From positions 114,226 to 178,225 of the forward strand of contig CADAKI010000001.1 in the NCBI GenBank assembly GCA_902788485.1: a stretch of DNA of 64,000 bases, given 5' to 3'. Origin of the DNA: an uncultured Pseudomonadota bacterium (lineage in GTDB: Bacteria; Pseudomonadota; Alphaproteobacteria; Rs-D84). The notes below the pieces were generated by a model that searched no databases, had not been told where the DNA came from, and saw only the letters and a list, made by a program, of their open reading frames with translations. The translations under genes and the position numbers were made by a program. Below, one piece after another: positions 16,720 to 58,878 of this stretch; positions within the stretch are counted from its first letter, which is position 1; each line of letters begins with the position of its first letter.

Positions 16720-17382
16720 TTACCAATCTATTGGTTGAAAACCGTGTTGGATTAAATACTCATTTGCCTGGGAAAAATGTTTACATCCAAAAAATCCACG
16801 ATATGCCGACAATGGCGACGGATGCACAGATTTCAAAATTAAATTTTGTGACGCGTCCACAAACGCGGCTTTCTTTTGGGCATAAGACCCCCACAACATA
16901 TACACAATATTTTTGCGCCGTGCCAATGCCGCAATCACCGCATCGGTAAATTGTTCCCACCCACGCCCCGTGTGCGACGCCGCCAAATGTGCACGAACCG
17001 TCAATGTAGAATTTAACAACAAAACCCCTTGTTTTGCCCAATGTGTCAAATCACCGTGTGTGGATGACGGGCGCCCCAAATCAGATTCTATTTCACGATA
17101 AATATTTTGCAACGATGGTGGCAATGTCACGCCATCCGGCACCGAAAAACACAATCCCATGGCCTGGCCCGGTTCGTGATATGGGTCTTGACCAATAATA
17201 ACAACACGCACATCGTCAACCGGACATAAATTAAACGCACTGAAAATATTGCGCGCCGCAGGATAAATTGCGCGTCCCGATAAATATTCCGCACGCACAA
17301 AATCGGTCAAATTTCGAAAATAATCTTTATCAAATTCCGGCGCCAATTCGCGTTTCCAAGATTCTTCGATTTTTACATCCAT
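16720..17382 (-). CDS. ung: Uracil-DNA glycosylase
   Basis: GQDPYHEPGQAMGLCFSV and HPSPLS motifs. Confidence 0.9.
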   Translation of the reverse strand: MDVKIEESWKRELAPEFDKDYFRNLTDFVRAEYLSGRAIYPAARNIFSAFNLCPVDDVRVVIIGQDPYHEPGQAMGLCFSVPDGVTLPPSLQNIYREIESDLGRPSSTHGDLTHWAKQGVLLLNSTLTVRAHLAASHTGRGWEQFTDAVIAALARRKNIVYMLWGSYAQKKAAFVDASQNLILKSVHPSPLSAYRGFFGCKHFSQANEYLIQHGFQPIDW

Positions 17383-17421: not shown

Positions 17422-18092
17422 TCACAAGCAATCATCCATAATAATCAATTTATTTTGTGCTGCTTTCCAAAGTACAACATCAATATACCCGCGTGGCAAA
17501 TTTGTTTCGCGCACCAAACAATCAAACATCGCATCACAGTATTTTTTAATCTGTGGATTTAATTTTTGATTATCTGCAACAACTGAACCTTGTACTCTGA
17601 ACTCTGAACTTTGCATCGCGAACGCGATGCCTAATCTTTGAATCCACACATCGTATTTAACAACATTTTCACCCAAATTCCGTGCCAAATGGTTTGCAGT
17701 AATTTTTCCAATATGCGGTAAATTTTGCAAAAATTTTAATTTATCATCTAATGTTTTTTGCGCATAATATTCCGCACAATATTTATCACGATTTTGCCAT
17801 ATTTTATAAATCGCATTGATTTTATTTTTGTTGTTAAATTTACCCAACAACGCGTCCACACCCGCACCCGCGCGCAACATTTTACAAATATCAAAATGAA
17901 TTTTCTTCGCGGTTTTTTGTGAAAATCCACCCGCCAAAATCACATAAGAACACGCATCTGCAAACGCATCCGGCGCAAACCGTTTGGGCCGCGCCAGATT
18001 TTCGCGTATTTCATCAAAAGATTGGTCGTCTGAATCCAACCCGCGTTCCCGCAAAGTTTTTTCCAACCCCAAAAACCAATCCGCCGAAAACA

Positions 18093-18093
<1 letters not shown>
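17422..18093 (-). CDS. HhH-GPD superfamily DNA glycosylase (AlkA/MagIII-like)
   Basis: Helix-hairpin-helix LQNLPHIGKITANHLARNLG. Carries an in-frame palindromic-element copy at 17583-17643. Confidence 0.5.
17583..17643. repeat. Palindromic element copy PE-1 (RPE-like), in frame inside the glycosylase gene
   Basis: ctgaaccttgtactctgaactctgaactttgca plus central palindrome tcgcgaacgcga; reads as GIAFAMQSSEFRVQGS in the gene frame. Confidence 0.6.
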
Positions 18094-20513
<2,420 letters not shown>

Positions 20514-21194: not shown

Positions 21195-21222
21195 AAAAAA
21201 AATCCCCAAACGGGGATTTTTA
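21195..21222. terminator. Bidirectional terminator hairpin atccccaaacggggat flanked by A8 and T5
   Basis: Exact reverse complement of the hairpin at 22601-22626. Confidence 0.65.
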
Positions 21223-22491
21223 TATTGATATCGCCTCGCCGGCTTCGCGTTGTCGTGCCAACAATGCCGCCTTGCGTTTTGCTTCTTTTTCTTGGGCGCG
21301 TTTTAAATTTGCATTTGCGTTCTCAATGGCTTCCCTCATTTTAACCTTAACCTCACCTTTTTTAAACACACCGGCCTTACCAACTTCTTGTTCGCCAATT
21401 TCATACGCCGCAATCACCTCTAATGCACTTTGCAGCATTGAATTTATCGATGCCACCGCCGCGCGTTCATCATCATATTTTCTCAACAACCGGGCGCGCA
21501 ATTCTTTTTCGTGTTCGTAATTATCACGATATTGGTCACGCGATTGTGTTAATTTGAAATTATCCGATAATAATTTTTCATTTGCATTTATCAAATCTAT
21601 ATTTTGTTGTTCCAAAGTATTTTCATAATTTGTCACATATTGTGCATCACCCGACCCAACAACATTATCAAAATCATATTTTTCTTTGGCGATTTCTTGC
21701 CATTGATTTAACAATTTATAAAATTCTTTATTTACTTCTTTATCTTTTATTGCCTTACTCAATTCTGGACTTAAATCACGCCCATCCAATACAGTTCTAA
21801 TAAGAGACCCTGGTTTACTTAATATAACGCCAACATTATCTGTATTTGGCACATCTTTGTTTAATTCCACATCCAAATCTTCATCGGTTTTTGCAAATAC
21901 ATCATTTATAATTTTCAACGCATTGTCTTGTGTTTCTGCAAAATAAATCATTTCCAAAATATCGTCTGTTGTTGCATTTTGATTATTTGCCAACATTGTC
22001 GCAATATCTTTATAAACAGACATCCGTTTTTTCGGTATTTGCAATCCATATTTTTCTGCACACGGACGTTTATAATCAGATGTTGATTTCAAAATTTTTA
22101 ATGCATCATAAACCAAATCTTTATCTTTAAATTTATTCAAACGATTTAAAAACATTTGCGAATACGATGTATTGTCATACCCCCGCGAATCACCATCGTT
22201 TTTCGGATAAAAAACCTGCTCTGCGACAAATTTTACCGTATTTTTCACATCATCCGTGGCACTTGGATTTTTATGCAATTCAAACATAAATCCTAACACA
22301 TCCTCCACAGATTTTGATTTAATTTTTCTGTGCACTTGTAAAAATTCTTGAAAATTTGCATCTGGATTAAAACCCGTTTCAACCGCTTCCTGCCAAAATC
22401 CTTTATAATCTTCGTAATACAAATGCCACTCTTTACGCAAATCTATATATGCACGAACAAATGTTTCCAAATCAAATATAAAATCCGCCAT
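21220..22491 (-). CDS. Hypothetical 423-aa cytoplasmic protein with a C-terminal coiled coil (possible secreted effector or cargo)
   Basis: No signal peptide; C-terminal K/E/R-rich heptad region; no recognisable family. Confidence 0.45.
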   Translation of the reverse strand: MADFIFDLETFVRAYIDLRKEWHLYYEDYKGFWQEAVETGFNPDANFQEFLQVHRKIKSKSVEDVLGFMFELHKNPSATDDVKNTVKFVAEQVFYPKNDGDSRGYDNTSYSQMFLNRLNKFKDKDLVYDALKILKSTSDYKRPCAEKYGLQIPKKRMSVYKDIATMLANNQNATTDDILEMIYFAETQDNALKIINDVFAKTDEDLDVELNKDVPNTDNVGVILSKPGSLIRTVLDGRDLSPELSKAIKDKEVNKEFYKLLNQWQEIAKEKYDFDNVVGSGDAQYVTNYENTLEQQNIDLINANEKLLSDNFKLTQSRDQYRDNYEHEKELRARLLRKYDDERAAVASINSMLQSALEVIAAYEIGEQEVGKAGVFKKGEVKVKMREAIENANANLKRAQEKEAKRKAALLARQREAGEAISI

Positions 22492-22600
22492 GAAAAAACT
22501 CCATTTTACTTACGCGATATATTATACCACAAATCATACACAAAAACAAAAAGATTCTTGTCCATATTATGGATAATTCATCAATTGAACTTTGAAAATT

Positions 22601-22626
22601 AAAAAATCCCCGTTTGGGGATTTTTC
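22601..22626. terminator. Bidirectional terminator hairpin atccccgtttggggat flanked by A6 and T5
   Basis: Inverted twin of 21195-21222. A palindromic-element arm fragment ttgaactttgaaaatt lies immediately 5' of it. Confidence 0.65.
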
Positions 22627-22663
22627 CGGGCCCCGCGAAATTCCACCAGAATTTCGTGGGTAC

Positions 22664-23734
22664 TCAACCCAACATCATTGTAATTTGGTCTTGCATTTGA
22701 AATGTTGCCAACACAACCCACGCGATAATCACCGACACCAATAAAATGCCCACACTGTTTAACGCACTTGATAACGATTCCATTTTATTCACAGAATTTT
22801 GCAAATAATCCCGTGCAACATTTGAAATATTTAAACTAAAATCGTTCATATCAGAATAAATTGTTAAATCGCCAATCAATTCATTGTTTGGAAAATTGCG
22901 TCCCGTATTCGCCAACGCGACACCCAAATTATCACCATTTGCAATATATCGCAACGCCGATTCCAAAATATCACGCAAATACCTGTTTGAATTGTCCGCC
23001 AATATACGCATCGCATCCGGCACAGACACCCCGGCCGCAACAAAAGCCGACAAAGACATCATCCACCCAACCGACACATGAATTTTATAAATATTCCACG
23101 GCGCAATATTATCAAATTTTGTGCGCAACCATCCCGTCCAATTTGGCAATGATAACCACACCAATAAACACAATCCAACAAAAACACCTGCAATAATATG
23201 CCAATATTTTATTGAAAATTCTGACACCAAAATCAATAAATTTGCCGCCCCCGTCCATTGAACATTTGGTCCGGCAACCGATGCCAACGGCGGCACCAAA
23301 TAAACACCAACCATAATAATAATTGCAAATGTCAAAACCAACAAAAACAACGGATACGCGATTGCATTACGCATCGCCCGTTTAATTTTATTTATACCAA
23401 CAACAACCGTTTCCAAATTTTCCAACGAAACGATTAAATCTGACACATTTGCAGATGTCAATAACAGCGTCTCGTTTTCTGGCAACCATCCACGCGTTGC
23501 ATCTGCAAAAGACAAACCTTGTTCCAAACCTTTTTGCCATTGACGCATGGCGATTGCATAGGGTTCATCGGGCTTTTTACCATTATGCGATTCAATTTGT
23601 TCAATCCGCCCCAACGCATCCATCAAAGAAAAATTATTACGCAACAAAGACGCCAATTTGCGTATCAATGCCAAACGACGTTCTGTATTCCATTTGAATA
23701 CCATTTTTGCATATAATAATTCTAAATTTTCCAT
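22664..23734 (-). CDS. GspF/PilC-family inner-membrane platform protein (type IVb PilR/BfpE/TcpE-like)
   Basis: 356 aa; cytoplasmic N-domain, three hydrophobic segments and T2SS-F-like architecture; immediately downstream of the GspE-family ATPase. Confidence 0.6.
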   Translation of the reverse strand: MENLELLYAKMVFKWNTERRLALIRKLASLLRNNFSLMDALGRIEQIESHNGKKPDEPYAIAMRQWQKGLEQGLSFADATRGWLPENETLLLTSANVSDLIVSLENLETVVVGINKIKRAMRNAIAYPLFLLVLTFAIIIMVGVYLVPPLASVAGPNVQWTGAANLLILVSEFSIKYWHIIAGVFVGLCLLVWLSLPNWTGWLRTKFDNIAPWNIYKIHVSVGWMMSLSAFVAAGVSVPDAMRILADNSNRYLRDILESALRYIANGDNLGVALANTGRNFPNNELIGDLTIYSDMNDFSLNISNVARDYLQNSVNKMESLSSALNSVGILLVSVIIAWVVLATFQMQDQITMMLG

Positions 23735-23739
23735 TTTAT

Positions 23740-25374
23740 TTAATATTCCCCTGGCCTATCCAGTAAACCAACCCATCGTTCTAATTCATCAACACCAATA
23801 ATACCTTTTAACATCAATTCCGCCGCAGATTCTTTCAATGTGCGACCATCCATTTCTTCCAACCAATATTTCACCGCCAAATCGGTATTGCCCGAAATCG
23901 CTAGTCGTAAAAATTCACTGTTTGTGATAATGATTTCGCCGGCCTTGATACGCCCCAATGTACCCGAACCATTACATTCACTGCATCCCGGACCACGGAT
24001 AAATGTTTGCTTTAATCCGATTTCACCAAATGCATCCATAACACGCGAATATGCCGGATGTTCCGGATGATTTGATAACGCCTCGCGACAATGTGGACAT
24101 AATTTTTTAAACAAACGCATTGAAACCAAACCACGCATCAATGTTTCTTCTTTTAACTTGAACGCTTCGACCCCCATATCCAACAAACGCGTCAACGCCG
24201 CCATCGCAGAATTCGCATGTAATGTCGTCCACACATTATGCCCCGACAACGCACCACGCACCGTCAATTGTGCCGCGGCCAGTGTTCGAATTTCCCCAAC
24301 CATAATTGTATCCGGGTCACTGCGTAATGCGGCGGCCAACGCCTCGGTATATTTTTCATCGCGTTGTTCTTCGTTCATCGCATTGACGACCGGCATTTGA
24401 TGCGCACCAAAAATTTTTTGTTCGACCGGATTTTCCACCGTAATCATATTGATTTCGTAATTGCGTTCTTTCAACATCATTGACATATTTCGAACCAATG
24501 TTGTTGATTTACCTGAACTGGTTGGACCGGCAACAATCACCAACCCAGTTGGATACGCACGCAGCCGTTCCAACAATTTACGTTCATATTCGCCAAATTC
24601 TTGTTCGGTTTTTATACCTTCGGATGGGTTATCATATAATAATCGCATAACGACATAACGCGTTCCATATGCGATTGGATTAAATTGCATACGAATACTG
24701 GTGACACCATCTGGTAAAAACAAATCACGCGTTCCACGCAATGGGGTGCGACCATCTTTTTGTGCCGATTGATATTCATTTTGTGCATAGTTTGCATTTG
24801 AAATATCCGCCGACGCAAACGCCGCACGCACAAACGATTCACCCCACCCGGCATTATATTCCAATACGGGTTGCATACTGCCATCGATACGAAAATAAAT
24901 TGTTGTTTGGTCAGAAACCTCGATATGCACATCCGACACCTTTTGTGCCGCCGCCCGTGCGATAATATCGACAAAATCTTTCTGCATTTGGTTATCGAAA
25001 TCCGCATGGTTATGAACACCACCACCCAAACGCTCTTCGTATGTTTTATAAATCGCCGAAACCAAACCCAAATCAGAATAAAACGGTGTTTTCATCACCA
25101 TATTGCGTTCACGCAGCAAATCCAAAAACGCCAACACGCGCCCATCATATTTATGCGTGCGCGATATAATAATTTCACCACCTGAAAAATATGCGACCAA
25201 ACTTTGGACATCACGCGACAATTGCAACCGCGCACCCGTCGCCGTCAACAACCGATTACCATTAGAATACAAATAATCCACAATTTCTTTGATTTCTGCA
25301 TTTTCCATTGCCACCGGCACAGACGGTGTTTTTGAAAAATTTGCCTCGTCAAAATTTTTATTATCTTTACTCAT
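23740..25374 (-). CDS. GspE/PilB-family secretion ATPase (type IVb PilQ(R64)/BfpD/TcpT-like)
   Basis: 544 aa; Walker A VIVAGPTSSGKSTTL, Asp and His boxes (TLHANSAMAALTRLLDMGV), C-terminal tetracysteine CPHC...CSEC zinc motif. Larger than VirB11 and carries the Cys motif VirB11 lacks. Confidence 0.8.
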   Translation of the reverse strand: MSKDNKNFDEANFSKTPSVPVAMENAEIKEIVDYLYSNGNRLLTATGARLQLSRDVQSLVAYFSGGEIIISRTHKYDGRVLAFLDLLRERNMVMKTPFYSDLGLVSAIYKTYEERLGGGVHNHADFDNQMQKDFVDIIARAAAQKVSDVHIEVSDQTTIYFRIDGSMQPVLEYNAGWGESFVRAAFASADISNANYAQNEYQSAQKDGRTPLRGTRDLFLPDGVTSIRMQFNPIAYGTRYVVMRLLYDNPSEGIKTEQEFGEYERKLLERLRAYPTGLVIVAGPTSSGKSTTLVRNMSMMLKERNYEINMITVENPVEQKIFGAHQMPVVNAMNEEQRDEKYTEALAAALRSDPDTIMVGEIRTLAAAQLTVRGALSGHNVWTTLHANSAMAALTRLLDMGVEAFKLKEETLMRGLVSMRLFKKLCPHCREALSNHPEHPAYSRVMDAFGEIGLKQTFIRGPGCSECNGSGTLGRIKAGEIIITNSEFLRLAISGNTDLAVKYWLEEMDGRTLKESAAELMLKGIIGVDELERWVGLLDRPGEY

Positions 25375-25378
25375 GTTA

Positions 25379-26107
25379 TTACCGACTGGATATATTTAAA
25401 TTTTGTGTTTCGCCATCTTTGCTGAACACAACACCATCTTCCAAAGATATCGATTTCACAGTAAACCCGTTGATTTTTTTACCAACACTAACGCGTTTTG
25501 TTTGACCTGTTTCCAAATCAGACAATGTTGCCTGTAATTGATTTCCGGCCCCCATAACATTTACCAATTTATACATTGACGCAATATCTTCATCGTATTC
25601 TTCGCGTTGCTTTTTTTGTGCCACAGGTTTCTTTTTTGGTGTTGCCGCCGCCACATCTGATGTATCACCCGATTCTGCGGCCTCGGTTGCCGCCGCAATC
25701 GCGCGTTTTTCTTGTTCTATTTTCGCGGCCTCGGCCTCTAGGCGCGCTTTTTCATTTTGCAAAATTTGTTGTTCTTGCTCGGCGCGTCCCGACAGTGTAT
25801 CCATTTCCATTTGCAGTTTAATTTTTTCCGCCGCCAATCTGTCCAAATCTAAATCCAGTTGTGCGCGTTCTTTTTCTAACTCCATCAAAACTTTTTCTTG
25901 TTCCAAATCCGTAATTTGTTGAAACACCGTTCCATCAACATTATATGCACCAACCGCCATTGCAGACACATCATCCGCGACATCTGATTCCACATCCTCG
26001 ACGAATTCATCGGTTAAAATTTCATCATCAACCGCCCACGCATTTGGCACAACCAAAAACGCAAACAAAACGAACAACACACCAAATAATTTATTTTTAT
26101 TTTGCAT
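25379..26107 (-). CDS. Periplasmic coiled-coil protein with a PilP-like C-terminal beta domain (BfpU/PilP-type assembly component)
   Basis: Signal peptide, long coiled coil, C-terminal YKLVNVMGAGNQLQATL..VGKKINGFTVKSISLEDGVVFSKDG resembling the PilP secretin-binding domain. Confidence 0.5.
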   Translation of the reverse strand: MQNKNKLFGVLFVLFAFLVVPNAWAVDDEILTDEFVEDVESDVADDVSAMAVGAYNVDGTVFQQITDLEQEKVLMELEKERAQLDLDLDRLAAEKIKLQMEMDTLSGRAEQEQQILQNEKARLEAEAAKIEQEKRAIAAATEAAESGDTSDVAAATPKKKPVAQKKQREEYDEDIASMYKLVNVMGAGNQLQATLSDLETGQTKRVSVGKKINGFTVKSISLEDGVVFSKDGETQNLNISSR

Positions 26108-27452
26108 AGATTATAACCTCATAGTTCCAATTTCGTGTAACCACATTCCACGCACAACGCGTGATATAAAAACCACCAAAATCTTCAAACATTTTTGTAA
26201 ATTGCATTGGCAATAATTTTGAAGACACTTCGACCTCGACAACATTTAATTGTGCGACATCAACCCCATTTGTAATTGTATCAACAACAATTTCTGTTTT
26301 TACATCCATATTCATTGATTGAAACAAACTGACCACATTTCTTTCAACGGTTGCGGCATCACGCGCATCCATTGACGCCGCACGCGCAACATCCGGCAAA
26401 GACACCGACACACTCAACATGTTATCGTTTATTTCTGTGATTGTTGCACCCGGCAGAAAATCCGCCGCCATATCATAAAAAGTATCCAACGAACCGAATT
26501 TTCTGTTAAATTCCGCGGTGGCAGTTGTTTCATCACACGACACATTTGATTGCACCCACCCAGTAATCGGTTGCATTAAAAATCCGACCGCCTGATAACA
26601 TTGTTTTGCGCGTTGTTCCGGCACCGGCAAAGAATTATATGGCAACACCAACGGTTGAACATCGGGTTGTTTTTTGATATCAAACTGTTTGTCCAACTCT
26701 TTATTTTTTTCATCAATCTGGCGATTGTATTCATCAATCACAGATTTATCAATCACGGCCGGCCTTTTTGCCGTCATTTTATGAATTGGTTCATTAAACA
26801 ATAAATAAATTCCCGCAAAAAAAGCACACAATAAAACGACAGAAAACAATCTGGCGCGCCACAAATTTATTGCACGCAATTTATATTTTGCTTTGCGTGG
26901 CAAAACACTTGCCAAATCTTTTTCCATCGCACGCGGTATTGCCCATGCGTTTGGCGCAATAAACGCCGACCAATCCGGTATTTTTGAAAACCGTGCATAT
27001 TCGGCGCGCGCATCTGATTCATTATTAAACAGTTTATCCGCCAAAATAATTCCATTACGCACCGCCAACAAATAATATTTTTTATCAACAAAAAACACCG
27101 CCAAAAACGAAGAATATTCACTAAACGCGTCAACAATTTCGGCGGCGGCGGACGGCATACCCGACGCATATTGACGTGCCCGCGGTGCCAACCCAATCAT
27201 AGACCGATATTCAACATACAATTTCGCACGGGTATTTGAATTACGTGCCAACACACCGGCATATCCGCGTGATGTATAACCAACCGCCACCGGTTGCCAA
27301 AACAATCCGGCCGCAAAACGCCGCTTGTTCACGCGAAAAACTTCACTGAAAGTATTATCACGATTTTTCGAAAAATTTCCAAATATCCAACCCATTGAAA
27401 AATTCATCTCTCCTGTTTTATAATTATAACAAAAAAATACAATCTTTGGCAA
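26097..27452 (-). CDS. Bitopic inner-membrane assembly protein (R64 PilO / BfpC / TcpR-like)
   Basis: 451 aa; about 190-aa cytoplasmic domain, single TM LFSVVLLCAFFAGIYLLF, about 230-aa periplasmic domain; its place in the operon matches pilO/bfpC. Confidence 0.45.
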   Translation of the reverse strand: MPKIVFFCYNYKTGEMNFSMGWIFGNFSKNRDNTFSEVFRVNKRRFAAGLFWQPVAVGYTSRGYAGVLARNSNTRAKLYVEYRSMIGLAPRARQYASGMPSAAAEIVDAFSEYSSFLAVFFVDKKYYLLAVRNGIILADKLFNNESDARAEYARFSKIPDWSAFIAPNAWAIPRAMEKDLASVLPRKAKYKLRAINLWRARLFSVVLLCAFFAGIYLLFNEPIHKMTAKRPAVIDKSVIDEYNRQIDEKNKELDKQFDIKKQPDVQPLVLPYNSLPVPEQRAKQCYQAVGFLMQPITGWVQSNVSCDETTATAEFNRKFGSLDTFYDMAADFLPGATITEINDNMLSVSVSLPDVARAASMDARDAATVERNVVSLFQSMNMDVKTEIVVDTITNGVDVAQLNVVEVEVSSKLLPMQFTKMFEDFGGFYITRCAWNVVTRNWNYEVIIYAK

Positions 27453-38710: not shown

Positions 38711-38852
38711 AAAATTCCCGGCCTTTTTGATAAAAAATGTCAAAAAAGCCGGTATTTTTTGCATAAATTGTATTTTGAATTTTGTACTCTGTATTTTTAA
38801 TGAATTTTCCCGGCATTTTTAATAAAAATGTTAAAAAAAGCCGGGAAATTTT
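38711..38852. repeat. Two tandem ~50-bp large-loop hairpin repeats (period about 91 bp)
   Basis: aaaaattcccggcctttttgataaaaaatgtcaaaaaagccggtatttttt and gaattttcccggcatttttaataaaaatgttaaaaaaagccgggaaatttt. A palindromic-element-arm-like tgtactctgta sits between them. Confidence 0.6.
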
Positions 38853-40548: not shown

Positions 40549-42819
40549 TTATTTTCCTTTTTTTGCCGGTTTCCGTGCATTTACAGCCGGTTTTTTATTA
40601 TTTATCAATTCGATTGCCGCGTCCAATGTTGGTTGCGATTTTACCGACACATTTACACAACCCGATGATATATATGGTCCATATCGACCGGTTGCATAAT
40701 ATAAAATCTTTTGTTTTGTTGCGGGGTTTTCACCCAATTCAACCGCAACCCGACCCGCCGATTTTTTATCCAATAAATCTTTGGCAATATCCACCGTCAT
40801 TGTATCAACAGTATAACCTTTGGCCGATGCATTTTTTGCACCATCAGATACATATGGTCCAAATTTTCCCGTCGGATAAAAAGTCAAATTATCACCCAAA
40901 TCAATCGGAGAATTTGGCTGATTTACTGCATTTACATCGTTTTCTGGCGCGGCGTTTCCATCACCAATTTTAACCGTATAATCGCATGTCGGATAATTAC
41001 TGCACCCAATAAACGCACCGTATTTTGATAATTTTATCCCCAACGCACCACCACATTTTGGACATTTTGTTTGACCGTCCGGGAACAGGTGATGCGTCAT
41101 AAATTCATTTATTACATCAATAATTTCCGATGTTTTAATAGAACGCGCGGCCTCAATCGTTTCGTTTGTTGGTGTCCAAAATTCATTTAACGCGGTAATT
41201 TTTTTCATTTTACCATTTGAAACATCATCCAAAGTATCTTCGGTTTTGGCGGTAAAATTCACATCAACCAATTCGGTAAAATATTTTGATAAATATGCCG
41301 AAATAATCCACCCCGCCGATGTCGGATGAAAACGATGTTGTTTATCTTGTTCGACATAACTGCGGTCAACGATAGTTGACATAATTGTTGCATATGTTGA
41401 CGGGCGCCCTATTCCCAATTCTTCCAATTTTTTAACCAAAGTGGCCTCGGTAAATCGGGCGGGCGGTGTTGTGAAATGTTGTTCAGGATTAAATTTCACG
41501 ATATTTAATTTATCGCCAACATTTAACGGTGGTAATTTTTCATTATCATCCGTTGTGTCATCGTCACGTGATTCGTTATAAATATGTAAGAAACCATCAA
41601 ATGTGCATGTGGTGCCAATACTGTGGAAAATTGCATCCGCGGTATCCGGTTTAATATCAACAACAACCGAATCAAATTCTGCGTTTATCATTTGGCAAGA
41701 AACCGTGCGCCGCCAAATTAAATCATACAATTTTTGTGCATCCGTATCTAACCCGGTTGCCGGCGCATTAAAATGCGTTGGACGAATTGCCTCGTGTGCT
41801 TCCTGGGCGTTTTTAGATTTTGTCACATAAACATTTGGTGATTTAGGCAGATATTTTTCCCCATATGTTTTTTCAATATATTTGCGGATTTCACCAACGG
41901 CCTCGGCCGATAAATTTGTGGCGTCTGTTCGCATATATGTAATTAAACCTTGTTCATACAAATGTTGCGCGACCGACATAGTGCGTTTTGATGAAAACCG
42001 TAATTTACGCGATGCCTCTTGTTGCAGTGTACTTGTGGTAAATGGTGCAAACGCGCGCCGTGATGTTTTCTTTTTTTCAACATTTATAACCGCGGCAGAA
42101 ATTTCAGGTTTTCCCAAATCCGCCAAAATTTTATCAATGGTTTCTTTATCTTTGATGGTTTGCTTATCAATTTTTTCATTTTTATATTTAATCAAACTGC
42201 TATTGAACTTTGCACTTTGAACTTTGCACTCTGCTTGCAAAGACCAATATTCGACTGGACGAAATGCCTCTATCTCGCGTTCGCGGTCAACGACCAATTT
42301 TACCGCAACCGATTGTACGCGACCCGCCGACCGCCCCAGGTTTCGCCGCCATAACAAAGGCGATACACCAAAACCAATTAAGTAATCCAGTGCCCTGCGC
42401 ACAATATACGCATCAACCAAATTAGAATCGATTTCCCTGGGTTCTTTTATTGCCGCCATAACAGCATTTTTTGTAATTTCATGAAATGCGACACGATAAA
42501 CCGGTTTTTTACCCAACACGCGCCGTGATTTTAATATATCCAACAAATGCCACGCGATGGCCTCGCCCTCGCGGTCCGGGTCCGATGCCAAATACACTGC
42601 GTCGGCTTGCTTTACCAAATCAATAATCAATTTTAATTGTTTTTCTTTGCCCGGCATAATTTGCCATTTCATTTTGAAATTGTCAGATGTATCAACACTG
42701 CCATTTTCGGGCACCAAATCACGCACATGACCGACCGATGCAACGACACGCCATGGTGCACCCAAATATTTTTCAATCGTTTTTGCTTTCGATGGTGATT
42801 CTACAATCAATAAATTCAT
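40549..42819 (-). CDS. topA: DNA topoisomerase I
   Basis: 756 aa; Toprim, active-site region, C-terminal Zn-ribbon CPKCGG. Carries a palindromic-element heptamer array in frame at 42204-42233. Confidence 0.9.
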   Translation of the reverse strand: MNLLIVESPSKAKTIEKYLGAPWRVVASVGHVRDLVPENGSVDTSDNFKMKWQIMPGKEKQLKLIIDLVKQADAVYLASDPDREGEAIAWHLLDILKSRRVLGKKPVYRVAFHEITKNAVMAAIKEPREIDSNLVDAYIVRRALDYLIGFGVSPLLWRRNLGRSAGRVQSVAVKLVVDREREIEAFRPVEYWSLQAECKVQSAKFNSSLIKYKNEKIDKQTIKDKETIDKILADLGKPEISAAVINVEKKKTSRRAFAPFTTSTLQQEASRKLRFSSKRTMSVAQHLYEQGLITYMRTDATNLSAEAVGEIRKYIEKTYGEKYLPKSPNVYVTKSKNAQEAHEAIRPTHFNAPATGLDTDAQKLYDLIWRRTVSCQMINAEFDSVVVDIKPDTADAIFHSIGTTCTFDGFLHIYNESRDDDTTDDNEKLPPLNVGDKLNIVKFNPEQHFTTPPARFTEATLVKKLEELGIGRPSTYATIMSTIVDRSYVEQDKQHRFHPTSAGWIISAYLSKYFTELVDVNFTAKTEDTLDDVSNGKMKKITALNEFWTPTNETIEAARSIKTSEIIDVINEFMTHHLFPDGQTKCPKCGGALGIKLSKYGAFIGCSNYPTCDYTVKIGDGNAAPENDVNAVNQPNSPIDLGDNLTFYPTGKFGPYVSDGAKNASAKGYTVDTMTVDIAKDLLDKKSAGRVAVELGENPATKQKILYYATGRYGPYISSGCVNVSVKSQPTLDAAIELINNKKPAVNARKPAKKGK
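42204..42233. repeat. Palindromic element arm copy PE-2 (tgaactttgcactttgaactttgcactctg), in frame inside topA
   Basis: Reads as ECKVQSAKFNSS in a variable TopA region, in the same frame and orientation as PE-1. Confidence 0.55.
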
Positions 42820-48788: not shown

Positions 48789-51107
48789 ATGAAATGGACA
48801 TATGAATGGTTGCGCGAATATCTGGATACAGATTATACAGCCGAACAAATAGAGGAAACTTTAAATCGTATTGGTTTAGAGGTTGAAGAATTTTTCCCTG
48901 CGGTACCACCGATTGCGGCAAAAATTGTTGAATGTCGCCCACATGAAAACAGCGATCACTTGCATGTATTAATGGTTGACGATGGGTCCGGCAAATTGCG
49001 CCAGGTTGTATGTGGCGCGCCAAACGCACGCGCAGGGTTAATATCTGCGCTGGCGCGGCCAGGATGTGTTGTTGGCGGTGTTGAAATTCAACCTGGAAAA
49101 CTGCGTGGGGTTGTATCAAACGGCATGATGTGCAGTGAACACGAATTGGGAATTGGTGATGATGATGATGGCATTATGGAATTGCCAGATGATACAAAAA
49201 TTGGCGATGCAATCGCAGGCACCAATGTCAGCAGTGTTTTTGACACCGGAATCACGCCAAATCGCCCTGATTATTTGGCGGTGCGTGGGATTGCACTGGA
49301 TTTGGCGGCATGTTCCGTTGGGCGTTATATCGCAAAAACACCGATTACATTGGCGGAAAAACCGGGCGCACGCAGTGTGCAATTAATGTCTGACCGTTGT
49401 CCAACATATCGTATGGCGGAAATTCATGGTATAAAAAATGCGCCGTCAAACGCGAAAATTGCAAATCGGCTGTCTGCGGCGGGTATTAATCCGAAAAACG
49501 CGTGTGTGGATGCAACAAATTATATCTGTTATGATATGTCGCAACCCCTGCATTGTTTTGATGCAGACAAAGTCGATGGTCCAATCATCGTCCGCACGGC
49601 ACAAAATGGCGAGAAATTTACCGACCTGTTTGGTGCCACACACGAATTGACCGACAAAGATTTGGTTATCGCCGATATGTCGGGTGTTTTGGCACTGGCG
49701 GGAATTATTGGTGGTGCGCGTGCAATGACCACGGATGACACAAAAAATATTATTTTAGAATCTGCGTATTTTGAACCGGTGGGTATTCGTAAAACCGCAA
49801 AACGGTTGGGATTGTCAACCGATGCATCGTATCGATATGAACGCGGTATTGACCCAAATGTATCGGGACCCGCACTGGCGGCGGCGGCGCAAATTATAAT
49901 GGATGCATGTGGTGGTGAAATTGTGTCGGTTGTGAACGCCGGACGCACAGAATTTACACCGAACAAAATTGCATATAATCCGGCATTTTGCCTGCAACGG
50001 ACGGGTGTTGATATGCCGATTGATGCCCAACGCGAAATCCTAGAATCTTTACAGTTCGGTGTTGCCACCGGCAAAGGCGGCATTTGGACCATAACCCCAC
50101 GCAGTGCACGTGTTGATATGACGGCGCCTGAAAACATTGTGTCTGATTTAATCAGAATTTATGGTTATGATAAGGTGGGATTGTCAGGGATTGTTGAAAC
50201 AAAAAATGAAAACACCGATAAAATAGAATCGCGCGGATGCGTTGGATTAAAACGCCGTCTGGCAAATATGGGATTAAACGAAAACATATCGTTTGGTTTT
50301 GGTAATTCTAAAATAGACGGTATGTTGACCGACAAACCGATTATTCCGGTATCAAACCCAATCACGGTTGAATTTGATTGCATGCGGAATAATTTACTGG
50401 GGAATTTGTTGATTGCATTGACGGGCAACATCAAACGCGGATATCCAAATGTCGCAATGTTTGAATTGGGAACGGTATTCGATGGTGATATGCCGGGCGA
50501 CGAACATACGCAAATATGTATTGTGCGTTCGGGCGCAACATCGCCAAAACATTGGATGAAGCGCAATCGATACGTTGATGTGTTTGATGTAAAATCTGAT
50601 GTTTTGTCATTGATTGGAAATCAAAAATATACAATCGAAACAACCGACGCACCGAAATGGGCGCACCCATATAAATATGGCCGGATTACCCAAGGCCCCA
50701 AAAAGATTGCGGAATTTGGCGAATTGCATCCCAATATTGCGCATGCGTTGCACATCAAATCACCAACGGTTGTCGTGATTATTGATGATATAAAAAATCT
50801 GCCGGATGCGCCAAAACATGCAAAAACACCGATAACAGAATTTCAACCAATCACGCGTGATTTTGCGTTTGTGACGGAATCCAAATTCCCAGCGGAAAAA
50901 TTAGTAATGGCGGCGCGCGGTGTGGATAACCGTATTGGCGATGTGACAATATTTGATTCGTTCGATATGGGCGATGGAACAAAATCTGTGGCATTTACAA
51001 TCACGATTTATCCAACATCAAATATGGGCGATGCCGAATTGACCGAATTACAGAACAAGGTAATTACCGCGGTGACAACAAAATGCCACGCAACCCTACG
51101 CGCTTAA
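48789..51107 (+). CDS. pheT: Phenylalanyl-tRNA synthetase beta subunit
   Basis: 772 aa; N-terminal tRNA-binding OB fold, B3/4, B5 and FDX-ACB domains. Confidence 0.9.
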   Translation: MKWTYEWLREYLDTDYTAEQIEETLNRIGLEVEEFFPAVPPIAAKIVECRPHENSDHLHVLMVDDGSGKLRQVVCGAPNARAGLISALARPGCVVGGVEIQPGKLRGVVSNGMMCSEHELGIGDDDDGIMELPDDTKIGDAIAGTNVSSVFDTGITPNRPDYLAVRGIALDLAACSVGRYIAKTPITLAEKPGARSVQLMSDRCPTYRMAEIHGIKNAPSNAKIANRLSAAGINPKNACVDATNYICYDMSQPLHCFDADKVDGPIIVRTAQNGEKFTDLFGATHELTDKDLVIADMSGVLALAGIIGGARAMTTDDTKNIILESAYFEPVGIRKTAKRLGLSTDASYRYERGIDPNVSGPALAAAAQIIMDACGGEIVSVVNAGRTEFTPNKIAYNPAFCLQRTGVDMPIDAQREILESLQFGVATGKGGIWTITPRSARVDMTAPENIVSDLIRIYGYDKVGLSGIVETKNENTDKIESRGCVGLKRRLANMGLNENISFGFGNSKIDGMLTDKPIIPVSNPITVEFDCMRNNLLGNLLIALTGNIKRGYPNVAMFELGTVFDGDMPGDEHTQICIVRSGATSPKHWMKRNRYVDVFDVKSDVLSLIGNQKYTIETTDAPKWAHPYKYGRITQGPKKIAEFGELHPNIAHALHIKSPTVVVIIDDIKNLPDAPKHAKTPITEFQPITRDFAFVTESKFPAEKLVMAARGVDNRIGDVTIFDSFDMGDGTKSVAFTITIYPTSNMGDAELTELQNKVITAVTTKCHATLRA

Positions 51108-51109
51108 TT

Positions 51110-51197
51110 CCAAAGTTCAAAGTGCAGAGTTCAAATTGCAATAAATGAATTATTATTATTCATTATCTGAACTTTGCACTTTGAAAATTGCACTTTG
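51110..51197. repeat. Full-length palindromic element PE-3 (intergenic)
   Basis: Left arm ccaaagttcaaagtgcagagttcaaattgca, AT-rich palindromic centre aatgaattattattattcatt, right arm tctgaactttgcactttgaaaattgcactttg. Confidence 0.65.
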
Positions 51198-51199
51198 TT

Positions 51200-51460
51200 T
51201 TACAATGCCCGTTTCAAAAATTCGATAATTTCATTGTCTGATAATTTTAATACACGCAACCAACGAATAGTTTCCATAATATCCAGCCGTCGTTCGTATG
51301 TTTCAACGCGCCCAACACAACAATGTGTCACGCGCATTTTTTGTGCCAATTCGCGTTGGGTTAAACCGCGTTGTTTCCGTAATTCAACCATGCGGTCAAT
51401 CATATCGCGGTATTTGTCCTGAAAAATGGTCTTTTTATTAAAAATAAATTTTTTATTCAT
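51200..51460 (-). CDS. XRE-family (Cro/C1-type HTH) transcriptional regulator
   Basis: 86 aa; HTH LTQRELAQKMRVTHCCVGRVE. Confidence 0.7.
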   Translation of the reverse strand: MNKKFIFNKKTIFQDKYRDMIDRMVELRKQRGLTQRELAQKMRVTHCCVGRVETYERRLDIMETIRWLRVLKLSDNEIIEFLKRAL

Positions 51461-51486
51461 GATATCATTTTGATATCATATAACCC

Positions 51487-51515
51487 CTGAACTCAAATTG
51501 AGAACAAGGTATAAT
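51487..51515 (+). promoter_or_regulatory. Promoter module copy 1 (CTGAAC-17-TATAAT) with 11-bp palindrome ctcaaattgag in the spacer
   Basis: Near-identical to the module at 51780-51808; the palindrome is a candidate operator for the adjacent XRE regulator. Confidence 0.45.
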
Positions 51516-51558
51516 ACCTAGGTGTCAGGAAATAAAGGGGTTTGTATGAAAATATATT

Positions 51559-51621
51559 TTTACATGAAATAAAAGATGGTTGCATGGAATAAAAAGAGAT
51601 TACATGAAATGTAAAACAAGG
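51559..51621. repeat. Three tandem 21-bp iteron-like repeats (TTRCATGRAATRWAAARNNNN)
   Basis: ttacatgaaataaaagatggt / tgcatggaataaaaagagat / tacatgaaatgtaaaacaagg; further degenerate copies up to about 51700. Confidence 0.5.
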
Positions 51622-51779
51622 TTATATAAAAAATTTTTATTGTATTTATGTTAAATAAAATGATGTTACATAAAAACTCAATATGAGTTGCATTTTGTTA
51701 AATAAAATATTTTTTCTGATTTTCTTATTCGCTTATTAACTTGTTCGCTTGCAACAGCATTTATGATATCAAAAATACC

Positions 51780-51808
51780 TTGAACTCAAATTGAGAACAC
51801 GGTATAAT
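51780..51808 (+). promoter_or_regulatory. Consensus sigma70 promoter TTGAAC-17-TATAAT (module copy 2) driving the OMP gene
   Basis: Perfect spacing, same ctcaaattgag palindrome in the spacer; 26 nt upstream of ATG 51834. Confidence 0.6.
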
Positions 51809-51833
51809 GTCTATAGACAAAAAAGTGGAAAAT

Positions 51834-52616
51834 ATGAAAAAATTACCTTTGTTTATTTTTTGTATAATGTATATAACCCCAATAATGGCGGACGGCAAGT
51901 AGTATCCAATAAACAATCAAACTGTTAATAATGTGTATAAAAAACAAGATAAAGCAAAATACGATAACGATTCATTAAATACCAGAAAACAAAAATATAA
52001 AGATTTATCTAGTCGTCGATACGACACCAAAAAATATGAAACCAAACAACATCATAACAATGATGATATGAATATTTATATTGGCGCAAATATAAATTAC
52101 AATGTTATGTCTTATAATTCAGAAATGAGTTTACCGTATACAAAATTTCCTGAATCTTACTGGGGTGCTGGTGCGGAGTTAGGAATAAAATTTGGTGAAA
52201 AAAATAATAAATGGAACTGCGGTTTGCTTATAGCGTATGATTATTTATATGATAAAGAAATATACACGCTTGATTATCCAATTGCAAAAATTGGTTTTTC
52301 AAGTATAGGCATTGGTTTTGATAATTATATAGAAATATCAAATCAAGATAACAAAAGAACAGATTTTGTTTTAGGTGTTGGTATTGCGAAAGCAACAGAA
52401 AGGGCGTCTATAGATATTCCTGGATTTTATGATTTTTCTGGATATCACGAAAGTGAGTCTTTAAAAGATAATGTTTTTTTATTAAAACTTGGTGTAAACA
52501 CACAAATGACAGAAAATATGGATTGGTATATGAGTGCCAGATTTTTTATCCCTAAAAAAGACACAGGTATAGATTTTGTATCATCTGTTCAAACCGGAAT
52601 AAAGTTTAATTTTTAA
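51834..52616 (+). pseudogene. Outer-membrane beta-barrel (OmpA/Omp25/OmpW-like) gene interrupted by an in-frame TAG at 51900-51902, right after the signal peptide
   Basis: MKKLPLFIFCIMYITPIMADGK-TAG-YPINNQTVNNV-YKKQDK... is a single frame. C-terminus ..GIKFNF has the terminal aromatic of beta-barrel OMPs. Downstream ORF 51933..52616 has no signal peptide on its own. Confidence 0.55.
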
Positions 52617-58794: not shown

Positions 58795-58868
58795 TTTTAA
58801 TTTTCAAAGTTCAATTTATGTGTCCGCCGTCGGCGGACGGCATTATTTGATATTTGTACTTTGAACTT
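58795..58868. repeat. Full-length palindromic element PE-4 (intergenic)
   Basis: Arm caaagttcaa, GC-rich palindromic centre gtccgccg-t-cggcggac, arm ttgtactttgaactttgtactctga. Confidence 0.65.
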
Positions 58869-58878
58869 TGTACTCTGA

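Follow-up and report, generated by a model that had tools for sequence, protein, structure and literature searches.

Probable in-frame loop replacement by one arm of a dispersed heptamer repeat in an Ogg2-like DNA glycosylase gene of Candidatus Enterousia

The window, as we call the whole 64,000-nucleotide stretch of DNA analysed here, carries on its minus strand (17422..18093) a gene for a 223-aa protein that, judging from its modelled fold, is predicted to be an Ogg2-like DNA glycosylase of the HhH-GPD fold. The start of this ORF overlaps the stop codon of gyrB (18093..20492), and ung (16720..17382) comes next. The gene had been labelled an HhH-GPD glycosylase from its letters alone. In sequence searches the label failed: no Pfam family matched at E ≤ 1, the HhH-GPD model PF00730 included, the best NCBIfam match (E 0.075) lay far under the cut-off, and a profile search of the PDB gave no match. 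By structure, on the other hand, the label held. The AF2 model of the protein (pLDDT 89.8) retrieved MjOgg with Foldseek (3knt/3fhf; E 6e-4, TM 0.62-0.66, probability 1.00), followed by Tm1821 Ogg, MutY, EndoIII and AlkA, and in the ortholog alignment the HhH motif LPHIGKITANHLARNLG precedes an invariant K146-Y147-D148. This agrees with the two-domain, all-helical architecture typical of the superfamily, in which a Gly/Pro-rich loop and a catalytic Asp come after the helix-hairpin-helix. The models thus support the assignment at the level of the fold, which is invisible to sequence models. All 1696 homologs belong to uncultured gut or rumen Alphaproteobacteria, where the gyrB-gene-ung order is always kept, and the species-representative genomes carrying them are those of Candidatus Enterousia; a widespread glycosylase-fold family is therefore missed by the current Pfam and NCBIfam models. 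Members of Candidatus Enterousia, which is placed in the order Rs-D84, have genomes of about 0.75-1.0 Mb and probably depend on a partner (PMC12306168). On its other side, gyrB is bordered in all relatives, L001/L003 among them, by genes resembling those of a T2SS or a type IV pilus (PilO-like, T2SSE, T2SSF; 21220-27452 in the window).

Within the glycosylase ORF lies a heptamer array (17583..17615, minus strand) of four 7-nt units and a partial fifth, which on the plus strand are ctgaacc (17583-89), ttgtact (17590-96), ctgaact (17597-603), ctgaact (17604-10) and ttgca (17611-15). The unit consensus is YTGNACT on this strand and AGTNCAR on the gene strand, where the array runs CAAAGTT CAGAGTT CAGAGTA CAAGGTT CAG and is translated as Q161-S170 (QSSEFRVQGS). 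The four-unit array is abutted by an exact 18-nt palindrome, GCATCGCG-AA-CGCGATGC (17613..17630; 7-bp stem, 4-nt loop), which overlaps the codons G155-I-A-F-A-M160-Q161 and the last partial unit. Translation across the array gives ..WIQRLGIAFAMQSSEFRVQGSVVADNQ.., and the frame stays open over the 223 aa. Direct reading of the window therefore agrees with the sequence-only reading as to the sequence, the coordinates and the open frame. The derived cassette that separates array-bearing from ancestral alleles comprises 17566..17631 on the minus strand (residues 155-176, GIAFAMQSSEFRVQGSVVADNQ), and the patch delimited by the closest pair of alleles, L231 and L002, corresponds to 17566-17617. The last 13 nt of the interval first assigned to the element (17631-17643) are conserved host codons, W-I-Q-R-L-G, and fall outside the derived segment. 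Just upstream of the hairpin, the host sequence ATTCAAAG(A/G) at 17632-17643 (W-I-Q-R codons) looks like a heptamer unit and, in the predicted fold, pairs with the first array units with the help of G-U pairs; it may bear on how the array was acquired.

Such arrays are far from random. The two-unit pattern YTGNACTYTGNACT, with at most one mismatch, has 15 matches in the 64-kb window against 0.24 expected, and 19 arrays of at least three units were found in 1.49 Mb of the window and related loci against none after shuffling. Two familiar signals were considered and set aside. A promoter made of TTGAAC and ATAAT has the wrong spacing by hand, and a scan of the locus gave nothing special; an alphaproteobacterial LexA box, GTTC-N7-GTTC, was dismissed by reasoning only, as a 7-nt period does not yield the needed spacing. 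A terminator scan flags 17613-17630 on the plus strand, with the tail CTAATCTTTG; this strand is antisense to the gene and has no plus-strand gene upstream.

To place the array in an evolutionary frame, the gene was compared with its orthologs. The ancestral loop, WIQRLG-V-L-Y-G-G-N-[PS]-A-L-x-x-K-I-D-N-G-K-L, is present in 70 of the 88 orthologs with DNA, and the array is confined to the closest relatives; as had been proposed, it is derived. Intact arrays are found in the window, L001, L003-L006, L010, L013-L016, L228, L230 and L231, decayed ones in L012, L229 and L232, and the site, the frame and the unit number (four plus CA) are identical in the window and the 13 other intact alleles. The event had been pictured as an insertion of about 60 bp or 20 aa, which the alignment does not bear out: 27 ancestral nucleotides are replaced by 39-45, a net gain of 4-6 aa (+12 to +18 nt). 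Nor is the element complete at this site, since one arm only is present and the second arm is absent from all 17 array alleles. Orthologs outside the array-bearing group carry a different peptide, and the QSSxFxVQ peptide is always accompanied by the nucleotide repeat or a decayed copy of it, so that the observation named beforehand as refuting the sequence-only reading was not made. In the AF2 model of the window protein, the segment joins helix 149-160 to helix 180-197; the model of the array-less ortholog P0016 has the same two conserved helices and a connector shorter by 5 residues. The array is thus read in frame, as first described, in a helix-helix connector with lower model confidence (pLDDT 82 and 73 in the connector versus 89 and 92 in P0016), and the models indicate that the fold is unaffected by it.

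The most informative comparison is that of L231, which has the array, with L002, which does not. The two alleles are 97-100% identical over more than 150 nt on each side, whereas identity drops to 0.17 in the 30-nt block holding the segment. The unalignable stretch begins with the third base of the Ala159 codon and extends as far as the codon that follows D-N, its boundaries are sharp, and there is no target-site duplication or other signature of transposition, which speaks against the original view of an inserted element. Array and array-less alleles are interspersed in two clades, in the GyrB tree as well as in the gene tree. Because the L231 and L002 alleles are almost the same apart from one cassette with sharp limits, both states appear to spread by short-patch recombination; and since the alleles are clearly homologous, excision cannot regenerate the ancestral loop and the flanks are highly conserved, we infer that lineages living together exchange the cassette through homologous recombination over short patches. 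It would have arisen in the first place by a replacement event rather than by transposition.

The heptamers belong to a repeat family that is dispersed in Candidatus Enterousia, and the description of heptamer arms around a variable centre proved accurate for it, full copies being present at 51107-51197 and 58803-58878 of the window and in L226, L037, L014 and L056. Intergenic copies follow the order (AGTNCAR)n, ATAATGAAT, variable centre, ATTCATTAT, (YTGNACT)n and form a long hairpin; the junctions flanking the centre are ATAATG(AAT) on the left and (ATT)CATTAT on the right, and the centre itself is either AT-rich or a GC-rich hairpin. This arm-centre-arm design is common to the window and L014, L037, L056/L073, L196, L199, L223, L226 and L227, and intergenic copies are often flanked by, or lie between, ordinary terminators. 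The window has five array loci, the glycosylase and four others, with further loci in relatives. A complete palindromic element (51107..51197) stands directly after the pheT stop codon, with a left arm at 51107-51141, an AT-rich centre with ATGAAT..ATTCAT and a right arm at 51167-51197 (RNA fold -30.4 kcal/mol, z -5.16). Another (58803..58878; -21.3 kcal/mol, z -4.77), between two same-strand genes, has a short left arm, a GC-rich central hairpin GTCCGCCG-TC-GGCGGAC (58822-58838) and a right arm (58854-58878) reading TTGTACT TTGAACT TTGTACT CTGA. A degenerate three-unit array, TTGAATT TTGTACT CTGTATT (38775..38795, plus strand), sits between the terminator hairpins of convergent genes. These hairpins, two near-identical long-loop structures (CCGGC-N-TTTTT-N-ATAAAAA..AAAAAGCCGG) within 38705-38835, flank the degenerate heptamers between convergent ychF and dnaG, and similar paired terminators are seen in L233, L207 and L225.

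Array number differs strongly among relatives, with five in the 22 kb of L196, four in the 12 kb of L226 and none in L195. The pheT-nth spacer contains the heptamer palindrome in the window and several arrays in L196; in L195 and L197 it has an ordinary terminator instead, joined in L195 by a remnant of 1.5 units. In the window about 1.4 kb (51200-52612) separates the pheT-proximal element from nth, and the spacer of relatives measures 50-200 nt; a further array is seen in the nth-pheT spacer of relatives.

A metagenome scan with an arm plus the ATAATGAA junction as the query gave 30 matches, of which about 13 were true family loci and about 12 came from an unrelated marine coding gene of 31% GC; L204 and L219 were unrelated contigs of 57-58% GC. 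In these two, a short AGTGCAG/AGTTCAA array with the ATAATGAA junction (L204 2291-2312, L219 2548-2569) lies directly upstream of a four-helix-bundle gene (MKHENLQLRTKQFALKV...) and overlaps its start. A viral origin was also considered and rejected: three tandem AGTKCAR units matched 76 viral contigs, but a permuted control unit matched 35, so tandem heptamers are generically common there and the matches make no specific link. The viral contigs (L084-L159, such as L084, L099, L118, L132 and L144; 20-71% GC) have tandem AGTTCAA/AGTGCAR arrays, some with an inverted partner array nearby, and 76 against 35 is roughly a twofold excess over one control. The idea of an uptake sequence was dropped, as no 7-12-mer is over-represented in the window and single units are not enriched outside arrays. 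Rfam, at the gathering threshold, identified only four tRNAs in the window and no known RNA family; a literature search for the unit strings returned chance primer-like matches only, and papers on Enterousia make no mention of repeats.

Single arms of about four units are also read in frame at no fewer than four other sites, in TopA, Nth (two sites) and MnmE. In the window, a second four-unit array (42203..42230, minus strand) lies inside topA (40549..42819) and is read as ECKVQSAKF, replacing AECAAHGTNF of array-less orthologs. The window TopA has EYWSLQAECKVQSAKFNSS where most orthologs have EYWSLGAECAAHGTNFNSN; 28 nt were overwritten with no change of length, a further departure from the expected 20-aa insertion. 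The array falls on a beta-hairpin tip of topoisomerase I. It is intact in the window and L196, decayed in L197 and L233, and absent from L195. In the endonuclease III (Nth) of L196, an internal array converts ADGQG to CKVQSAKCKVQS (+7 aa), and a second, C-terminal array puts the stop codon inside the ATAATGAA junction; the same C-terminal fusion is found in the Nth of L213 and L225 (L196 824-1510 and 1653-1673, L213 2048-2075, L225 5242-5269). MnmE carries QSSEFKVQSSNNE in five loci (L201 2766-2800, L210 978-1005, L218 2895-2922, L222 6140-6167, L224 1371-1398). In MnmE GTPase genes of genomes with 42-47% GC, the array and junction stand in frame (..HVIDGQSSEFKVQSSNNEIIVVNKSDL..). A TsaE-like ORF at L015 20326 is a possible case of an N-terminal array.

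Every genuine in-ORF array has AGTNCAR as its sense strand, and the unit itself offers the reason. As three units make 21 nt, all three frames give the same cyclic peptide, S-[SAT]-[KE]-[FC]-[KR]-V-Q, and in this orientation its seven codons are free of stops, whereas TTGAACT or CTGAACT arrays, the opposite orientation, read TGA.

We then considered how the array evolves within the gene. In ten alleles, the fixed positions of the unit (C, A, A, G, T) are nearly invariant even at third codon positions, with alignment columns 6, 9, 12 and 27 at 10/10 and columns 18 and 30 at 9/10, whereas the degenerate R and N positions vary even at first or second codon positions, which yields S/T/A, E/K, F/C and R/K. 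Third-position identity is 0.72-0.75 in the array versus 0.56-0.60 in the flank, the latter taken on the downstream side only, since a 6-nt shift in three alleles makes the upstream side unreliable. At the R positions most alleles carry either A throughout or G throughout, which suggests homogenisation or re-conversion more than independent point mutation. The glycosylase and topA arrays of the same or a closely related genome differ at the variable positions, so inter-locus homogenisation, or concerted evolution within a genome, finds no support in them; and in several lineages the array has simply decayed, so that its maintenance is not universal.

The hairpin beside the array turned out to be of a different nature from that first supposed. 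It had been taken for the inserted centre of the element, yet its gene-proximal half, the 5' half on the gene strand, consists of host codons for the conserved peptide G-[IV]-A-[FY]-A, altered so as to pair with a few new bases. A hairpin occupies the same place in 14 of the 17 array alleles, and its stem takes no fewer than three unrelated forms: GCATCGCG/CGCGATGC in L228 and the window; GCATTGCA/TGCAATGC, with TT between, in L001, L003, L010 and L229, and its variant GCATTGCG/TGCAATGC, with a G-U pair, in L005; GCGTTGCA/TGCAACGC (TA between) in L232; GTCGC/GCGAC in L015; and TTGTTTTTGC/GCAAAAACAA (ACA between) in L004, TGTTTTTGC/GCAAAAACA in L014 and GATTTTGC/GCAAAATC in L016, the last three alleles having two extra codons. 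On average, the longest perfect stem measures 7 in array alleles and 3.8 in the 70 array-less ones (Mann-Whitney p 1.4e-6, the sequences not being independent). In 12 gap-free alleles 90% of cells pair, against 51% at most in slid controls, and three pairs have double-sided changes, with a weak shuffle control (84/500 for percent paired). Residues 156 (I/V) and 160 (M/I or T) change in concert, giving either an A-T or a G-C pair, I156 occurring with M or I160 and V156 with T160, and G-U intermediates are seen on the sense strand. The stem stays perfect despite a decayed array in L229 and L232; no hairpin is present in L231, the array-bearing recombinant whose left breakpoint falls within the stem. 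In the array region the sense RNA folds at -21.5 kcal/mol (z -2.74), an array-less ortholog having a z of +0.18. The hairpin could be kept by selection on structure or by templated quasi-palindrome correction.

From these results, the reading that we favour, with modest confidence, is that the feature is a tolerated, repeat-derived loop replacement, in which one arm of a lineage-specific dispersed repeat is read in frame. A block of about four units would have replaced the connector codons between two conserved helices of the Ogg2-like glycosylase, and likewise codons of TopA, Nth (at two sites) and MnmE. Rather than by cut-and-paste transposition, the block would have entered by illegitimate, conversion-like recombination over a short patch, although no donor-recipient event was seen. 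The array allele would then pass among related strains and species in the form of a short cassette exchanged by homologous recombination, its units being re-homogenised against other arrays or decaying by point mutation, and the adjoining locus-specific hairpin being kept by compensatory change or templated palindrome correction, while the glycosylase presumably does no more than tolerate a loop longer by 4-6 aa. Most likely, the element is selfish or neutral at the glycosylase site: the decayed arrays of L012, L229 and L232 in the glycosylase gene, and of L197 and L233 in topA, count against an obligatory function. The longer, covarying hairpin, perfect even beside decayed arrays, is nevertheless not predicted by a purely neutral passenger model and hints at selection at the nucleic-acid level.

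The main competing explanation, which we hold to be possible though on the unlikely side, starts from this last observation and takes the array and hairpin as a functional cis-element within the coding sequence, the peptide being a by-product. Such an element might act in the RNA, by governing its stability, its processing or the binding of a protein, or as a DNA site, for instance with heptads bound cooperatively by a ribbon-helix-helix type protein or with cruciform or topology sites at gene ends. Conservation that tracks the nucleotide motif regardless of codon position fits it well, as do the hairpin recurring in most array alleles with compensatory changes, G-U intermediates and pairing-obeying residues, the sense-strand fold that the array-less ortholog lacks, and the hairpins and terminators that adjoin intergenic arrays too. 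It agrees poorly with the several lineages in which the array has decayed, with the majority of orthologs that have none, and with L231, where the array does without a hairpin; moreover, many intergenic copies are placed between convergent terminators and should see little transcription, no Rfam family or binding protein was identified, and the covariation statistics are weak.

A bolder idea, which we put forward only tentatively, would make of array and hairpin a nucleic-acid module able to copy itself into protein loops, without a transposase, through templated conversion of short patches, and kept by selection at the DNA or RNA level. If this were true, the coding of the Ogg-like glycosylase, Nth, TopA and MnmE would be constrained more by pairing and a 7-nt motif than by the protein, and the pairing of their codons would be what makes residues 156 and 160 covary. 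Such 'overprinted' cis-elements would form a new class and give repeats a new way of remodelling proteins in reduced genomes.

Transposition of the MITE or RPE type, in which a trans-acting transposase inserts a complete palindrome in frame and the copy later erodes to one arm, seems improbable to us. Full palindromic copies do exist, their number varies between related genomes as described above, and in-frame insertion of a MITE has a precedent (PMC10969869). A MITE, however, has terminal inverted repeats and a target-site duplication, whereas the coding copies have a single arm, none of the 17 glycosylase alleles retains a second one, and the L231/L002 pair is free of a duplication. Host sequence was replaced rather than interrupted, to the point that TopA kept its length, the centre of the element is not conserved, and no transposase or Y1/HUH gene was present among about 200 Pfam-annotated neighbour genes at about 12 loci.

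An adaptation at the protein level, with the QSS[EK][FC][KR]VQ loop selected for its effect on the glycosylase and the nucleotide periodicity secondary, might account for a peptide that is kept in frame in many alleles and comes after the helix following the catalytic Asp148 region. We regard it as very improbable, for the same nucleotides recur in non-coding DNA and in four unrelated proteins, synonymous sites at fixed positions are invariant while amino acids vary at degenerate ones, and most orthologs lack the loop. A contingency locus, switched on and off by slippage of a 7-nt unit that is not a multiple of three and varies in number at intergenic sites, is scarcely credible with imperfect units, 14 of 14 intact in-ORF alleles sharing unit number and open frame, no frameshifted allele seen, and the essential topA among the hosts.

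The loop replacement that we favour makes these bacteria well suited to studying how essential proteins are remodelled by selfish or structural DNA, and the otherwise near-identical array and array-less alleles allow the neutrality of the segment to be tested. Several known systems resemble parts of it. The uptake sequences USS and DUS of Pasteurellaceae and Neisseria are, like the Enterousia heptamers, short motifs that occur as inverted pairs and also in coding DNA; they occur as single motifs at a density of about one per kb, their inverted pairs form terminators, and within coding regions they prefer variable protein segments. They differ in that single Enterousia units are not enriched outside arrays and that the window has no over-represented k-mer. 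The omega protein of pSM19035, of the ribbon-helix-helix type, binds contiguous 7-bp operator or centromere units in direct and inverted orientation; the contiguity and the two orientations are shared, but the omega heptads are plasmid regulatory and partition sites with another consensus, whereas the Enterousia copies are often chromosomal and intragenic. REP/BIME elements, and REPINs with their RAYT transposases, are likewise short intergenic repeats that form hairpins; they are found at the 3' ends of genes or where two genes converge, and their copy number varies between relatives. Their stem, however, is conserved, RAYT-recognised and extragenic, whereas the Enterousia centre is variable, the arms are unit arrays, copies also lie inside genes, and no RAYT/Y1 transposase appears among the Pfam-annotated neighbours at about 12 loci.

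Closer in their units are the STRR heptanucleotide arrays of heterocystous cyanobacteria, reportedly described by Mazel et al. in 1990, with CCCCAGT and others as unit sequences. In both families, tandem units of 7 nt are scattered over many unlinked loci within one lineage, as found here where shuffled sequences give none; they differ in unit sequence and in phylum, and to our knowledge neither an arm-centre-arm palindrome nor the in-frame replacement of a protein loop has been described for STRRs. STRRs have been used as fingerprinting targets (PMC5088731).

The closest parallel in outcome is the Rickettsia palindromic element, and the comparison drawn in the sequence-only reading was apt; judging by the design of the element, the sequence family is probably a different one, as was remarked there. 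RPEs are dispersed palindromic repeats of about 100-150 bp that occur in frame in unrelated genes, where their peptide is tolerated in the protein structure, and also in intergenic DNA (PMC10969869). RPE-1 to RPE-10 and the Enterousia family have in common that a dispersed palindromic repeat stands in frame in unrelated housekeeping genes of a reduced-genome alphaproteobacterium and encodes a tolerated conserved peptide, with further copies in intergenic DNA. RPEs, however, are pure insertions that add tens of residues and are not built of short tandem units, whereas the coding copies in Enterousia consist of about 28 nt of one arm and replace host codons at a cost of 0 to +7 aa. The Enterousia unit is stop-free and translatable in every frame, the loop is replaced, the allele appears to circulate as a cassette, and the locus-specific hairpin, made partly of host codons, appears co-adapted with pairing covariation at two residues; it is by this design that the heptamer family is set apart from the RPE families. 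The observation that led to this work is thus confirmed and its interpretation partly right: the element is RPE-like in outcome and differs in its structure and, it seems, in the way it spreads. Genes colonised in frame by palindromic repeats have been a peculiarity that marks out Rickettsia, and Enterousia, from the gut and the order Rs-D84, adds an independent case.
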